From contig JAZDLR010000022.1 in assembly GCA_043801745.1 (NCBI GenBank), positions 65,960 through 129,959 on the forward strand: a DNA stretch of 64,000 bases, given 5' to 3'. The translations under genes were made by a program, and so were the position numbers. The notes under the pieces were generated by a model. It made no database searches. It saw nothing but the letters and a program-made list of their open reading frames with translations, and was not told where the DNA came from. This document shows, in pieces, positions 14,854 to 45,955 of the stretch. The stretch is from Candidatus Komeilibacteria bacterium (GTDB taxonomy: Bacteria > Patescibacteriota > Patescibacteriia > UBA1558 > 2-01-FULL-52-15). Numbering within the stretch: position 1 is the stretch's first letter; each line of letters starts with the position of its first letter.

Positions 14854-15189
14854 ATGGACATCCGTGTATCAATATCAGAAGCAGCCAGATTATTCGGGGT
14901 TTCCACTAAAACGATCAGGCAGGCCATATATAATGGCGAAATCCGCTATATTATTGTTAATGGCCGATATAAGCTAAATTTTGACAGCTTAGTACACTGG
15001 AGCCAGCTTAGTACACGCCGTAAAAATTTGCTGTCCCGAGCTGGATTAGGTCAGTATGTGGATAAGTGGAAGATATCCAACATTAAATATAGTCCTGGCG
15101 CTCCCAAACCGGAAGCCTCTGAAATTAAAAAAAAGCGGCCAGAGCCGCCAACCAAGTATATCCCCATTAAACCAGGGGATCAGTTGTAA
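14854..15189 (+). CDS. small HTH (excisionase/MerR-like, HTH_17-type) DNA-binding protein
   Basis: ORF-track frame 14734..15189, but the first ATG is at 14854 (MDIRVSISEAARLFGVSTKTIRQAIYNGEIRYIIVNGRYKLNFDSLVHW). Basic Lys/Pro-rich tail. Confidence 0.55.
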   Translation: MDIRVSISEAARLFGVSTKTIRQAIYNGEIRYIIVNGRYKLNFDSLVHWSQLSTRRKNLLSRAGLGQYVDKWKISNIKYSPGAPKPEASEIKKKRPEPPTKYIPIKPGDQL

Positions 15190-15215
15190 GTTGTCAATTG
15201 AAGGACATCTTTTCT

Positions 15216-15270
15216 TACCTACAACTATCTCGGCCACAGGCCGATCGCCCCAGTGGGCGAAACTTTCAAC
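15216..15270. repeat. direct repeat R2, partner of R1
   Basis: TACCTACAACTATCTCGGCCACAGGCCGATCGCCCCAGTGGGCGAAACTTTCAACT. Abuts the stop codon of 15271..16356. Confidence 0.5.
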
Positions 15271-16356
15271 TTAAAACTGCACAGTTATTTCCTGCTGCTT
15301 AGAAGCGCGGATTACGGTTAATTTTGTACTATCGCCAGCTTTATAACCCAGCAATAGTTTACCCAGGCTATTATTGTTTGTCAGGCTAATAGCTGTACCG
15401 CCAACAGCAGTAATGATGTCTCCCGGCTTAATACCGGCTTTAGAAGCAGGGGAATTGACGACAACTGCCGCCTTGGCAGGATTATAAACCAGAACTCCTT
15501 CATCCTCCTTATGTCCGGGTAAACGATACAGATCTAAATAATACAATCCGACAGAGACATAGGAACTTTTAGCTAAAAACTTATCCACAGCTGCATTCAA
15601 ATAATAGGCCGGCAACATCTTACCGTTCTGACCCAAACCAACCACTGAACCAGATAAACCAAAGAAAAACATCGGGTCACTGCTGACATACTCAGTTAAA
15701 GTCGTCTGATCAACCAGGCTAGGGCCATGAACCTGACTGGCTTTGCTAGTTGAATCAATCGCATTGACCTGACGAACTATTGTGCGGTCAAATAAATAAC
15801 CGGCCACCAGATGGGCCTGTTCAAAAACTAAGGTTGAGCCTTGATATAATTCATCATCACGGGCAAAGCGGATAGGAGATAAATTACTAGCATCAATTTT
15901 AATAAATCGCACTCCGGCTACAGAATCAATAGATTGTTCGCTGGGCCGATAAACTTTATTATTTACGACAATGTCAATCTGAGCCGGTAAAACTGCACCG
16001 GCCGGGAATATTAACCAGCCGTCAGAAGTAGCTATCAGAGCAGTACCAATATATTCCTTGTCGCTATATAGCTGATTAATTGCTTGTCCGGATTGTTCCA
16101 CATGAGTATAAACGGCGGCCAAATGCTGATCTAATTGATTAGCCACAACTGTTAAAGGCTCGTCAAACTTGATCTTAATGTTGGTAGTATCGTTACCAGA
16201 ACCAGTAATGATCGTATCCGCGGGATAAATAGCTCGCATTAAACTGAACCCGGCCGCACCCGTAACTAAACCGACTAAAGCACTAACAATAGTAACACTG
16301 ACCAGAGACGGTGGCCTCTCGGCTGTAGGACGAATAAAATGCTGAAAATTAGCCAT
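15271..16356 (-). CDS. PDZ-domain trypsin-fold (HtrA/S1C-like) membrane-anchored protein; catalytic His/Ser motifs not recognisable
   Basis: 361 aa. N-terminal TM; GTALIATSDGWLIF resembles the start of the trypsin fold, but TNNHV and GNSGG equivalents are missing (FFFGLSGSVVGL). C-terminal PDZ (GIKPGDIITAVGGTAISL...KLTVIR). Confidence 0.45.
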   Translation of the reverse strand: MANFQHFIRPTAERPPSLVSVTIVSALVGLVTGAAGFSLMRAIYPADTIITGSGNDTTNIKIKFDEPLTVVANQLDQHLAAVYTHVEQSGQAINQLYSDKEYIGTALIATSDGWLIFPAGAVLPAQIDIVVNNKVYRPSEQSIDSVAGVRFIKIDASNLSPIRFARDDELYQGSTLVFEQAHLVAGYLFDRTIVRQVNAIDSTSKASQVHGPSLVDQTTLTEYVSSDPMFFFGLSGSVVGLGQNGKMLPAYYLNAAVDKFLAKSSYVSVGLYYLDLYRLPGHKEDEGVLVYNPAKAAVVVNSPASKAGIKPGDIITAVGGTAISLTNNNSLGKLLLGYKAGDSTKLTVIRASKQQEITVQF

Positions 16357-35536: not shown

Positions 35537-35854
35537 AATTTTGAATAGCTCATCCCCCTTCGCTAAAGCTTTGGGGGATTATTTCGCTAAAGCGAAATAA
35601 AATAATCTGTGAGTAACCACAGACATTAAGGTTTCCAGTCATAACTGGATGCGGCCTCGGTAGGAAATTAAGTCCTTCGACTCCTGCGTCTGACGCAGTC
35701 GCTCAGGACACCCACTGTCTGTGGCATTTGATTTGTGATCAGAGTGTATCAAAGTGATGACTTTTAGTCAACTGCCGCAGTTTCAAGTTGAAAGTTGGAA
35801 GTTGTCAGCAAGACGCTTTAAACATTCAACTTTCAACTGAAAACTATTAGCTAA

Positions 35855-35952
35855 CCCCGTTAGAGAAAGCCTAATTCAATAAAATTCCTCATTAAGAACA
35901 TGAGACTGGTAAAAAACCACATTTATTAAAACAATTTACATCTCTAACGGGG
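35855..35952. promoter_or_regulatory. 12-bp inverted repeat pair CCCCGTTAGAGA ...(74 nt)... TCTCTAACGGGG, 42 bp upstream of the ncRNA promoter -35
   Basis: Read directly from the sequence. The same IR pair with a different 52-nt interior recurs at 47515-47590. Confidence 0.35.
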
Positions 35953-35993
35953 CTAATATTAGCCAAATATACAGAATATTTGCATTTCAAGTC

Positions 35994-36023
35994 TTGACAA
36001 AAATTTAAGTATATGCTAGAGTG
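35994..36023 (+). promoter_or_regulatory. strong sigma70-type promoter: -35 TTGACA (35994-35999), 18-nt spacer, extended -10 TGcTAGAGT (36015-36023)
   Basis: gtcTTGACAaaaatttaagtatatgcTAGAGTg with an AT-rich upstream tract. Drives rightward transcription into the ORF-free GC-rich region. Confidence 0.6.
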
Positions 36024-36029
36024 CCCACA

Positions 36030-37251
36030 TTGCTTCTGGCACCCTGCTGGAAAGCAACTAGGCGCCTCAAGCGGCATCGCGTCCGCGAAGAGGATTTGAA
36101 CAAGTCTGGAGGGACCAAAAAACATGATCCATTCGACCTGCTACGCCTACATTTACGGCAACATCATCGCCTGAACCGGCCCCGGCCGGCGGGCCCAGGA
36201 GTACTGAACAGACGGACAAGCGACCTTCCAAAATGAGGATAACCCTCGGAGTCGCGATCCACTGACCCGGTTCCTGGCCCACACATCCACGCGAGCCGGT
36301 ACTGCGTTTGAAGCGGTAGCCGTTCGCTCTCCCCTGAGGGAGATTCCGGAAACCTAAACATACGCCGGAAAGGATAACCAGCAATGATGCAATGACCGCG
36401 CGTAGAGGTGCGCTCCCGAGATGCTCGCTGGTACTTAGAGAAGTACCCAACCCCAGCGACATCGAACTTTTCACGGACGCTCCACACGGGAGGAGCATCC
36501 AAACGGCGGGAGGGTCACCGCCGAAAACAAAGACTCTTGCCACAGCAGTCACTGCCAAAGCGGCAACTGACTGTGGGCATCACCATCCTGAATACCGGCC
36601 ACGAGGCCAGTACCGGAGGACGAGTGATCGGCATTATCCGCGCGTAGAGGAGCGCACCCGTTTCGATAGCCCCGGGAAAGAATTTAGTAACACCAACCCA
36701 ACCCGGCAGCTATCATGCTCCATACGGGAGGAGCAACCAGTAAACGGCGGAACGGTCACCGCCAAAAAAACGACCGCGTACATTCAAAAGCAGGTGGCGC
36801 CGCTTGCGGCCGGGCAGTTCCTGCTCGACTAGCAGGCGCACACGCGCCCCTTTTCTGTAAAAAAGACACACTGGTCGTGTCCGTCAGCCCACCGTTCCCC
36901 GCAATTGCCGGGAACATTGAACAACCATTTCGGGCCCGGACAACGCCAGTGTAACGTACGGCCGTGCCCACGGGTATTCCAAGCCCATTGTGCCGGCCGG
37001 CAAATCGCGCTGACTCTCTCGGGATACCGAGCAGCCGACCACAGGACCCCGGACTCACACCGCATTGAAAGGCTTCGGCTAAGGCGGGCTAGTGACTCTG
37101 GGCACATCCACAGGTCAAAGGCGCGATAGAACGACCCGGGATATGCAAGGGAGTAGAGAGGGTTCCGAACCAAATGGAACCACTCCCCCAAATATACCCG
37201 GCCAGTGCCCCAATCAATACATCGATTGGGGCACTATTTTTTTCGCCACAT
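36030..37251 (+). ncRNA. large (~1.2 kb) GC-rich structured ncRNA candidate of unknown class
   Basis: Bounded by the promoter above and a canonical intrinsic terminator at 37207-37251. Much more GC-rich than flanking sequence in an AT-rich genome. Every reading frame is broken into short overlapping ORFs (70-160 aa, all six frames), the typical signature of non-coding GC-rich sequence. Contains two homologous ~135-nt modules (36398-36532 and 36640-36772) and many hairpins. Confidence 0.5.
37207..37251 (+). terminator. intrinsic terminator of the candidate ncRNA
   Basis: GCCCCAATC-aatacatc-GATTGGGGC followed by ACTATTTTTTT; 8-bp perfect stem plus T7 run. Confidence 0.7.
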
Positions 37252-37470
37252 ATAAAAACCTACCGAGCACAGCTCGGTTGAGATCAAATGATGCGAACCC
37301 GCCGAAGCCCCGAGCTCGGTGAGGGGCAAATGGCGGGTAACTACCTTAAATTTAATCAGGTCTAATCCGACGGAAATAAACAAAAGCCAACCCGCCGACT
37401 CGGCCTCCGTAGCCGCTTCGGCGAAGGGGGCAGCGTCTGCGCGTAGGCGGTTATTTCCTACAAACTATTA

Positions 37471-38526
37471 CTAATTCAAATACAACTCTCTATTTTTCTT
37501 ATGTTCTTCCAGCGTCCTAGCATAGTGCACTCCGCCGTCTTTATCAGTCAGAAAATAATAATACGGATTGGCCGTAGGATATAAAGCCGCTTGTATACTG
37601 GCAAGACCCGGATTGGAAATCGGCCCAGGAGGCAAACCTTTATATTTATAAGTATTATAAGGTGAATCAATTTTCAAATCAGCTAGTGACGGCCGCGTCG
37701 TGCCTTTACCGGTAATATAATTTACCGTGGCATCAGACTGCAAACCAATCCCAGCCTTAATACGTTTCCAGAAAATATCAGCAATCATTTTCTTGTCGGC
37801 GTGCAAGGGCACTTCTTTCTCAATAATTGAAGCCATAATAATTACTTCATATAAGGTATGACCCGACTGCCTAATATCACTAATCATTGGACCAGAAATT
37901 TTAGCTTCAAAATTCTGCAGTTGCTTCTGAACAATACTCGCCATTTTAGTTGACTGAGTAATCTGATAAGTATCAGGGAACAAGAATCCCTCTAATGAAT
38001 TCCCATCAGGTATGGCCTGAGTCAGAGGAAAATCGTCGCGGTAGGCTACGTTGGAAAGAGTCAAATCTACATAATCCTTGGCAGCAAAACCGCGCGTAGC
38101 CAGATAGGCAGCGTTTTCTTTCCGGTTCCAGCCTTCGATAAACGTTAAATTGTCTTTTTGACCAGAAGCTCCTCGCATCAGCTCCTTTACCAGGACGTGA
38201 ATACTCATACCAGTATTTAAACTGTATCTGGCGGCAATCAGCTTATCTTCCGCCCCAATCAGCCAGACGTAACTTTCAAAAATAAATTTGCTACCAATCA
38301 AGCCATTCCGGTGCAAATTATCGCTGATAGTATTGACTCCCTGACCGGATTCAACGTTAAAAATAATCTCCCGGCCCGGCAGCTGCGTTGGCCGAAATAA
38401 TTCAATCGTCACCCAAGCCGCGACTATTAACACAGCCGCAATCAGACACAGAAAAAATGCTTTAATTATTGGCCCCACCATAATAAAATAATGCCTAAAA
38501 TAATTGTGTAAATGGAAAAAACCCAC
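37471..38526 (-). CDS. mltG: endolytic murein transglycosylase (YceG/MltG family)
   Basis: 351 aa; N-terminal TM plus YceG-like domain (pattern GLQSDATVNYITGKGTT..L...DSPYNTYKYKGLPPGPISNPG). Confidence 0.8.
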   Translation of the reverse strand: MGFFHLHNYFRHYFIMVGPIIKAFFLCLIAAVLIVAAWVTIELFRPTQLPGREIIFNVESGQGVNTISDNLHRNGLIGSKFIFESYVWLIGAEDKLIAARYSLNTGMSIHVLVKELMRGASGQKDNLTFIEGWNRKENAAYLATRGFAAKDYVDLTLSNVAYRDDFPLTQAIPDGNSLEGFLFPDTYQITQSTKMASIVQKQLQNFEAKISGPMISDIRQSGHTLYEVIIMASIIEKEVPLHADKKMIADIFWKRIKAGIGLQSDATVNYITGKGTTRPSLADLKIDSPYNTYKYKGLPPGPISNPGLASIQAALYPTANPYYYFLTDKDGGVHYARTLEEHKKNRELYLN

Positions 38527-45882: not shown

Positions 45883-45955
45883 CTATTCATTCTAATGAAG
45901 GCGGGATCCCGCCAAAGGCGGTGAAAAGTTGTAAGTTGTAAGTTATTTAACCTTC

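Follow-up and report, generated by a model that had tools for sequence, protein, structure and literature searches.

We examined a pair of homologous repeats, here called modules 1 and 2, in 64,000 nucleotides (nt) of DNA from Candidatus Komeilibacteria, a member of the Parcubacteria group in the CPR (candidate phyla radiation). The DNA comes from a metagenome-assembled genome (assembly GCA_043801745.1, contig JAZDLR010000022.1). This whole 64-kb stretch is referred to as the window, and positions are counted from its first letter and lie on the + strand unless stated otherwise. The two modules sit in a 1.7-kb gap without genes, which extends from the rplJ side to the mltG side. One flank is the rplJ-rplL operon on the - strand, and the other is mltG (37471-38526, - strand), whose product is 100% identical to NCBI MFH0874179.1 and which is convergent with the RNA unit described below. 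The genes flanking the locus are rplJ/rplL, mltG, uppP, and fpg. The sole Rfam match near the modules is the ribosomal protein L10 leader (RF00557; 35589-35742, - strand; 50 bits, above threshold), directly upstream of rplJ. The same leader was detected in two related loci (L004:10624-10768 and L008:3131-3293). From the promoter to the terminator of the RNA unit, GC content is 0.55-0.62, versus 0.32-0.45 in the flanks. The unit as a whole has 58% GC, compared with 44% for the window, and its + strand is U-poor and rich in C and A.

We infer from the following signals that the region is transcribed. The best promoter of the region is of the sigma-70 type, TTGACA-17-TAGAGT with an extended -10 TG (35994-36022), and matches at 10 of 12 positions. 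The predicted non-coding transcript of ~1.2 kb (36028-37245, its start placed from the -10 box) would end at a strong intrinsic terminator with a 12-bp stem followed by a U run (37204-37245). Inside the unit, a weak hairpin resembling a terminator, GGCGC-ACAC-GCGCC with CCUUUUCUGU after it (36835-36857), lines up with the point where the shorter L004 and L008 RNAs end, and a shorter isoform of ~0.83 kb ending near 36857 is possible. The 385-nt 3' extension beyond it (36860-37245) resembles only the 3' part of the RNA in a third related locus, L005. Together, the internal terminator and the extension make two isoforms or two domains possible in the window RNA. In comparison with dinucleotide shuffles, the minimum free energy (MFE) gave z = -7.1 for the first 840 nt of the window RNA and z = -6.9 for its 3' part. 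The RNAs of L008 and L004 gave z = -7.9 and z = -4.0.

The promoter has a fixed layout, AGCCAAATAT-22-CTTGACAA-20-GTGCC, in the window, L004, and L005, so that the -35 box, the -10 box, and the first transcribed bases GTGCC are kept at the same spacing in both relatives. L008 keeps the -35 and -10 boxes with variant flanks and has ATTACT in place of GTGCC. Between the divergent promoters of rplJ and the RNA lies a perfect 14-bp palindrome, GGCTAATATTAGCC (35951-35964, without strand), with no second exact match (0 mismatches) in the window. Its right half, AGCCAAATAT, stands exactly 22 nt ahead of CTTGACA in the window, L004, and L005, and L008 has GCTAAAATTAGC where the others carry it. The palindrome may be a shared operator.

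A short open reading frame (ORF) also recurs near the 5' end of the transcripts. In three of the four RNAs, a short frame running from ATG through 16-18 codons to TGA lies behind a Shine-Dalgarno (SD)-like GGAG(G), at a similar 5' distance (window 36108-36174, with the ORF itself at 36124-36174; L008 RNA 93-161; L005 RNA 60-129; none in L004). The SD sequence and start codon are predicted to lie within a hairpin. The peptides, MIHSTCYAYIYGNIIA, MIARNSAQAFYRYRTTRA, and MNVLTHLMISYIESGGRG, are unconserved, although aromatic in the middle, and the ORF could be a leader peptide or a coincidence.

The repeat itself is built of three conserved blocks. When both strands of the window were searched and up to 3 mismatches allowed, GCGCGTAGAGGWGCGCWCCCG matched only at 36398-36418 and 36640-36660, GCTCCAYACGGGAGGAGCAWCCA only at 36479-36501 and 36717-36739, and AAACGGCGGRASGGTCACCGCC only at 36501-36522 and 36742-36763. 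The same patterns gave 0 matches in 100 dinucleotide shuffles, and a repeat-finding program also recovered these three families, spaced 242, 238, and 241 nt apart. Identity between the modules is 21/23, 21/23, and 24/27 in the blocks, while the 45-55 nt separating blocks 1 and 2 cannot be aligned between the copies. A covariance model (CM) with 26 bp and 138 positions, for which only module 1 and its H1-H4 structure were used, found module 2 over its full length with 54.9 bits (E = 7.6e-13), and it gave no other significant match in the window and 7 related loci (129 kb, both strands). The module repeat is thus confirmed to be far beyond chance. The initial annotation had described two homologous ~135-nt modules marked by a set of short motifs, with differing sequence in between, and this description stands: every string that it quoted is present, with coordinates accurate to within 3 nt.

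A repeat of this kind might be protein-coding, or it might be the template and variable repeat of a diversity-generating retroelement (DGR). A 146-codon ORF (36392-36832) does span both modules, and in five of the seven block differences an A occurs in module 2 only, a superficial likeness to adenine mutagenesis. We nonetheless regard this explanation as scarcely credible. None of the offsets (242, 241, and 238 nt) is divisible by 3, so the copies lie in different frames, and the ORF has no Pfam match and is unconserved in the homologues. The remaining two of the seven block differences involve no A at all, and in the centre the copies differ by indels and by replacement of whole stretches, a pattern that DGRs do not generate. 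No reverse transcriptase is present among the flanking genes, the part of the 64 kb in which one was looked for. Pfam matched none of the ORFs in the RNA region, and six-frame tblastn against the homologous regions returned only short matches in several frames and on both strands, suggesting conservation at the nucleotide level and not of a protein.

Other repeat-based identities were considered and set aside. Tandem Repeats Finder reported no array in 36000-37300, the two copies are 242 nt apart, and no cas or tas genes flank the locus, which does not fit a CRISPR or TIGR-type array. Each block occurs exactly twice in 64 kb, unlike a dispersed repeat, a miniature inverted-repeat transposable element, or a repetitive extragenic palindrome. 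A sponge for CsrA/RsmA was rejected on GGA counts of 31, 17, 13, and 24 in the four RNAs, against 22.5, 16.2, 15.4, and 18.8 expected from composition.

Block repeats and predicted folds delimit module 1 as the hairpin series H1-H2-H3-H4 (36395-36530) and module 2 as H1-[S1]-H2-H3-H4 (36637-36772), the latter also matched by the CM. Block 1 reads CCGCGCGUAGAGGUGCGCUCCCG in module 1 (36396-36418) and CCGCGCGUAGAGGAGCGCACCCG in module 2 (36638-36660), and 16 of its first 19 alignment columns are invariant across six copies from three genomes. Its hairpin H1 pairs GCGC with GCGC around an 8-nt loop (36398-36401 with 36410-36413 in module 1; 36640-36643 with 36652-36655 in module 2), and a CCCG tail follows in each copy. 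In module 2, this tail (36657-36660) is able to form a stem, S1, with CGGG at 36673-36676. The module 1 tail (36415-36418) is without such a local partner. However, CGGG(A) is present in the H3 loop of both window modules, where CGGGA is complementary to the tail (U)CCCG, and the module 1 tail may pair there instead.

H2 is the only stem that differs in sequence between the copies, and it carries the evidence for conserved pairing. Each copy folds much more stably than shuffled sequence. In module 1 (36420-36463; z = -5.1), it is an 11-bp helix, GAUG(C)UCGCUGG with CCAGCGACAUC, topped by an apical mini-hairpin and a CCAACC loop segment, with pair probabilities of at least 0.95 in the full-length fold. 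In module 2 (36665-36714; z = -3.6), GAUAGC(C)CCGGG and CCCGG(CA)GCUAUC again form 11 bp around a loop with CCAACCC, at a pair probability of 1.0. The CCAACC(C) segment is therefore kept in both loops, and 4 of the 11 pairs are compensatory, changed on both sides, with 0 broken. We counted this covariation by hand because Infernal passed over the H2 of module 2 with a local end. The stems of H3, GCUCC-ACACGGGA-GGAGC in module 1 (36479-36496) and GCUCC-AUACGGGA-GGAGC in module 2 (36717-36734), are identical. H4 reads CGGCGG-GAGGGUCA-CCGCCG in module 1 (36504-36523) and (C)GGCGG-AACGGUCA-CCGCC(A) in module 2 (36745-36764), where the terminal C-G pair has become C.A, the only pairing loss between the copies. 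H3 and H4 together fold with z of about -3.3 in both. The modules therefore align well beyond the short motifs, with the four hairpins in the same order, and their differences preserve the predicted pairing. Together with the CM match and the compensatory H2, this bears out the proposal of the initial annotation that the repeat is an internally duplicated structural domain and not random repeat DNA.

Exact look-ups of window proteins returned no record, and homologous loci were reached through relatives of the window MltG. The RNA is present in L004 (68% MltG identity, JGI), in L008/L009 (64%, ENA), and in L005/L006 (58%, GCA_964517065 and Logan), and in each of these the gap from mltG to rplJ measures 1.4-1.8 kb. 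The predicted RNAs of the three positive loci are ~858, 932, and 1152 nt long, all are GC-enriched relative to their own locus, and an intrinsic terminator closes the RNA in L004, L005, and L008. Their bodies are very diverged, with a global identity of ~62% of the shorter sequence versus 50% in a shuffled control. A 5' hairpin can be seen by eye in each positive locus, and the RNAalifold result for it on a MAFFT alignment is weak because MAFFT misaligns L005.

The RNA is absent from L011 (52% MltG identity) and L020 (55%), which have a protein gene in the slot instead (L011:5150-5857, 235 aa; L020:2671-3501, 276 aa; neither with a Pfam match), and the slot of L012 (L012:5006-6469) holds unrelated DNA with no sequence akin to the RNA. 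The site between mltG and rplJ is thus variable between lineages. Beyond these loci, a module-derived pattern run against one genome per GTDB species gave 3 matches, all by chance, in coding or terminator contexts of unrelated phyla. Scans of metagenomes with the 3' blocks of the module and with the promoter signature gave 0 matches each; the promoter scan also missed the JGI sample of L004, so the collection evidently lacks these samples. A scan of viral contigs for the H1 motif yielded 4 chance matches in GC-rich coding DNA, and blastn of the whole RNA against phage records found no match. So far, the RNA is confined to a small clade within Candidatus Komeilibacteria.

Several smaller features were seen around the slot. 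In the lineage of L004 and L007, the RNA and mltG are separated by a 102-aa ORF that has a promoter and a terminator of its own (L004:9175-9483, - strand; L007:2542-2812) and a weak, sub-threshold match to an FHA fold (Yop-YscD_cpl, E = 0.0012). In L019, a relative at 60% identity, a unit of ~290 nt adjoins mltG (L019:6897-7296, - strand) and runs from a promoter (TTGACA...TATGATAAAT) to a terminator; it shares no sequence relationship with the window RNA, and the contig stops at this point. In the window, the segment between the RNA terminator and mltG (37262-37398) contains short direct repeats (37280-37305/37373-37398 and 37271-37290/37313-37332) and a - strand terminator (37278-37262), which probably serves mltG. 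Repeats of the CAACTTTCAACT type with a 7-nt period occur in intergenic DNA at 35785-35838, 15182-15271, and 45927-45938 (6 matches in the window versus 0.33 expected), and similar runs border the RNA locus in L005, L010, and L019.

The window modules and the relatives are linked by a 20-21-nt element, UCCGCGCGUAGAUGAGCGCC, which corresponds to block 1. L004 has two copies of it, separated by 146 nt, and L008 has two separated by 150 nt; all four are 100% identical even though the MltG proteins of L004 and L008 share only 69% identity. The window copies match it at 17 of 20 positions. A motif hidden Markov model and the module CM detected copies in the window, L004, and L008, inside the RNA locus and nowhere else. 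The initial annotation had proposed a search for further module copies: no other full-length copy exists in the searched DNA, but the 5' element occurs twice in the RNAs of two relatives. A degenerate third copy may be present in L008 and L004 at the position of module 2, as judged by eye; it was not significant by nhmmer.

Starting 1-2 nt after the element, a predicted H-type pseudoknot fits five of the six copies. Its stems are S1 GUGCCC/GGGCAC and S2 GUCCUC/GAGGAU in L004 copy A, GACCC/GGGUC and AACCUC/GAGGUU in L004 copy B, GUCCC/GGGAC and GCCUC/GAGGC in L008 copy A, GCCCC/GGGGC and CGACCUC/GAGGUCG in L008 copy B, and CCCG/CGGG and GAUAGC/GCUAUC in window module 2. The last S2 is the outer 6 bp of H2. 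The 5' strand of S2 lies inside the S1 loop, adjoining the 3' strand of S1, and its partner follows 9-12 nt downstream (32 nt in the window). This crossing topology is that of an H-type pseudoknot. The predicted geometry is regular, with a junction of 0-2 nt, an L1 of 3-5 nt, and an L3 of 9-12 nt (32 nt in the window), and all pairs are standard. S1 and S2 both covary, with up to three pair types per column, and the probability of finding an S2 complement by chance is p = 0.009-0.14 per copy. The G.U pairs in S2 of L004 copy A fit the + strand, as do the promoters, the U-tract terminators, and the G.U pairs read from the sequence of the 5' hairpin.

Since L004, L008, and the window all show the two-copy pattern, the plan of an invariant hairpin followed by a pseudoknot, present twice, predates the split of the three lineages. 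Both window copies additionally share derived features, namely the extended H2, CCAACCC, H3, and H4. These, together with the restriction of the full module to the window genome, suggest duplication or gene conversion within the window lineage on top of the older two-copy plan.

One could instead suppose a neutral segmental duplication at the DNA level, in a non-functional spacer or a decayed gene, without any role as RNA. The slot between mltG and rplJ is indeed variable, with its 235-aa gene in L011 and 276-aa gene in L020, and the full module is confined to the window genome. We consider this very improbable, since divergence is block-wise, with ~90% identity in the blocks and an unalignable centre in which an 11-bp helix has nevertheless been kept through 4 double changes. 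In addition, the promoter and terminators are kept in four genomes, the folding energy is extreme, and the 20-nt element is fully conserved between genomes at 69% MltG identity. As for a decayed gene in particular, the slot proteins of L011 and L020 have no similarity to the RNA region.

A different question is how the two modules relate to each other within the fold. The 5' blocks could pair long-range, GGUGCGCUCC (36407-36416) with GGAGCGCACC (36649-36658), in a 10-bp helix that would replace the local hairpins and exclude both H1 and S1. Such a helix could act as a clamp, a switch, or a dimerisation site between molecules. It is compatible with the modules being paralogous folding units and would be a structural variant of that explanation, not another identity. 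The two arms form an inverted repeat of 10 nt with 100% complementarity. The only two differences within block 1, U/A at 36409/36651 and at 36414/36656, pair perfectly between the copies and would mismatch in homo-pairing. In the full-length partition function, the helix appears in both the MFE and the centroid folds with a pair probability of ~1.0, compared with ~0 for local H1, and enforcing both H1 hairpins costs +6 kcal/mol. Nevertheless, we estimate, without computing it, that about one perfect 10-bp complement is expected by chance in a GC-rich RNA of 1.2 kb, and because block 1 is nearly palindromic, any two copies of it will be partly complementary. In L004 and L008, the copies can form at most a 4-6-bp GCGC/CGCGCG core and are predicted to adopt the local hairpin, and S1, a stem with covariation in the relatives, would be lost if the helix formed. 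Given the chance expectation and the inability of the relatives to form it, we keep the helix as an alternative that is possible but doubtful.

Searches for known families gave little. With Rfam 15, only tRNA and the L10 leader passed the gathering threshold in the window, and only the L10 leader was found in the homologues L004, L005, and L008. Even at E <= 10, the region 35700-37500 returned only microRNA and small nucleolar RNA noise of at most 21 bits, and the RNA segments of L008 and L004 returned only terminator-like noise. OLE, GOLLD, ROOL, HEARO, raiA, RNase P, transfer-messenger RNA (tmRNA), signal recognition particle RNA, 6S, group I and II introns, and riboswitches were each dismissed for want of an Rfam match at threshold, and ARAGORN found no tmRNA.

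These results bear on the possibility that the modules are tandem ligand-binding aptamers of a two-domain riboswitch, or part of another cis-regulatory leader. Glycine riboswitches have a tandem-aptamer architecture. The window RNA resembles them in having two homologous, pseudoknotted units of ~135 nt in series, which could touch each other, and the short ORF with its SD-like sequence upstream of the modules would suit a leader. However, no aptamer or other family matches even at E <= 10, there is no expression platform, and the units lie midway along a 1.2-kb transcript, ~370-740 nt from its start. Downstream of them come terminators and then the convergent mltG, which leaves no same-strand gene to regulate. 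A cis-regulatory role is accordingly a poor explanation, with only a slim chance of being correct, and the riboswitch analogy drawn in the initial annotation finds no support.

Parallels also exist among other structured RNAs. Serial pseudoknot modules are found in tmRNA (PK1-PK4) and in the xrRNA and dumbbell elements of flavivirus 3' untranslated regions. Like these, the window RNA has repeated, predicted H-type pseudoknots of the same topology, with covarying stems, that would have arisen by internal duplication. It matches no Rfam family and lacks both a tRNA-like domain and a tag ORF, and the invariant hairpin ahead of each pseudoknot has no counterpart in either tmRNA or the flavivirus elements. 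H1 itself, written GCGC-GUA-GA-K-GA-GCGC, is reminiscent of a kink-turn (K-turn) or K-loop, which are protein-binding motifs, in its G-C stem, its bulge-like 3-nt GUA, and its placing of the GA dinucleotides. Five of the six copies show GCGC-GUA-GA-N-GA-GCGC, and in module 1 the second GA is replaced by GU. However, only 1 nt separates the two GA dinucleotides, which makes tandem sheared G.A pairs closed by a loop sterically implausible, and no L7Ae/Nop-type gene adjoins the locus. A K-turn reading is attractive on sequence but sterically doubtful, and we treat this as a resemblance only.

In its overall organisation, the RNA is most comparable to OLE, ROOL, GOLLD, and raiA. As in those classes, a stand-alone gene of hundreds to more than 1000 nt runs from promoter to terminator, many hairpins and pseudoknots are combined with invariant islands in a fast-evolving body, the phylogenetic range is narrow, and the biochemical function is obscure. 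The window RNA differs from them in its CPR host, its internally duplicated module, and the absence of a CM match. Genes such as oap are linked to OLE. The window RNA has no such linked protein genes and no prophage context, and it is represented by four metagenomic lineages so far.

Taking the evidence together, we are fairly confident that a genuine large non-coding RNA (ncRNA), specific to this lineage, contains the modules as paralogous structural units. The full explanation, in which they are paralogous folding units within a stand-alone, structured, clade-specific ncRNA of ~1.2 kb, is probably correct. Each unit would begin with the GC-clamped hairpin H1 of near-invariant sequence, CCGCGCGUAGAKGWGCGC, followed by a C-rich tail that would form a pseudoknot stem with a nearby G-rich strand. 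Next would come the hairpin H2, equivalent to S2 in the relatives, with its structure kept and its sequence free, and, in the window genome only, the hairpins H3 and H4 with conserved 8-nt loops.

Several observations weigh against this explanation or parts of it. Transcription of the region is inferred from sequence signals, only four full-length homologues were found, and three of them are very diverged. H1, H3, and H4 do not vary between the copies and so offer no covariation, S1 and S2 were aligned manually, and the nearest-neighbour model favours the inter-module helix over two local H1 hairpins. L005 is without the UCCGCGCGUAGAUGAGCGCC element, and the module 1 CM did not find H3/H4 or the full module in the relatives. 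The orthology of the modules is ambiguous, as the flanks favour module 1 as the equivalent of copy B, and L-INS-i pairs module 2 with B. The conserved-looking ORF of 16-18 codons with its SD-like sequence, seen towards the 5' end in three of the four transcripts, also counts against it, and no partner protein was identified.

As to how such an RNA might work, we offer a tentative mechanism. Because H1 is absolutely conserved, with a stem unable to covary, in an otherwise free-running RNA, it may be recognised in a sequence-specific manner, either as a binding site for a protein or as a docking surface for RNA-RNA contacts. The adjacent pseudoknot would set the orientation of H1, and two such units would make the RNA bivalent, as a scaffold or an assembly unit might be. 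In the window genome, where the 3' halves of H1 are exact complements, the units may also zip into the 10-bp helix, clamping or switching the fold. OLE, ROOL, and GOLLD form homo-oligomers made of RNA only (PMC12286853), so self-association of the complementary palindromic blocks is worth considering. That the units are programmed self-association or docking elements, by which the RNA folds or oligomerises like ROOL, GOLLD, and OLE or toggles between a modular and a zipped state, is a more speculative proposal, and we think it rather unlikely. On this proposal, the RNA would have a physiological role that matters enough for a genome of roughly 1 Mb to retain an RNA gene of 1.2 kb behind a near-consensus promoter.

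The RNA is a predicted new class with four members, and literature searches for large ncRNAs in CPR bacteria or Komeilibacteria found nothing relevant. For annotation, the region should be treated as an RNA gene, and ORF calls within it should be disregarded. Its modular build, an invariant 20-nt hairpin with a covarying pseudoknot, present twice, offers handles for pull-downs, structure probing, and cryo-electron microscopy. The CPR, or Patescibacteria, comprises a large share of bacterial diversity and has minimal genomes, and its ncRNAs are almost unexplored. A strongly folded RNA of ~1 kb with a near-consensus promoter, beside the L10/L12 operon, would be among the very few large ncRNA classes outside cultured phyla. 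The window RNA illustrates how a large RNA can grow by duplication and remodelling of a domain.

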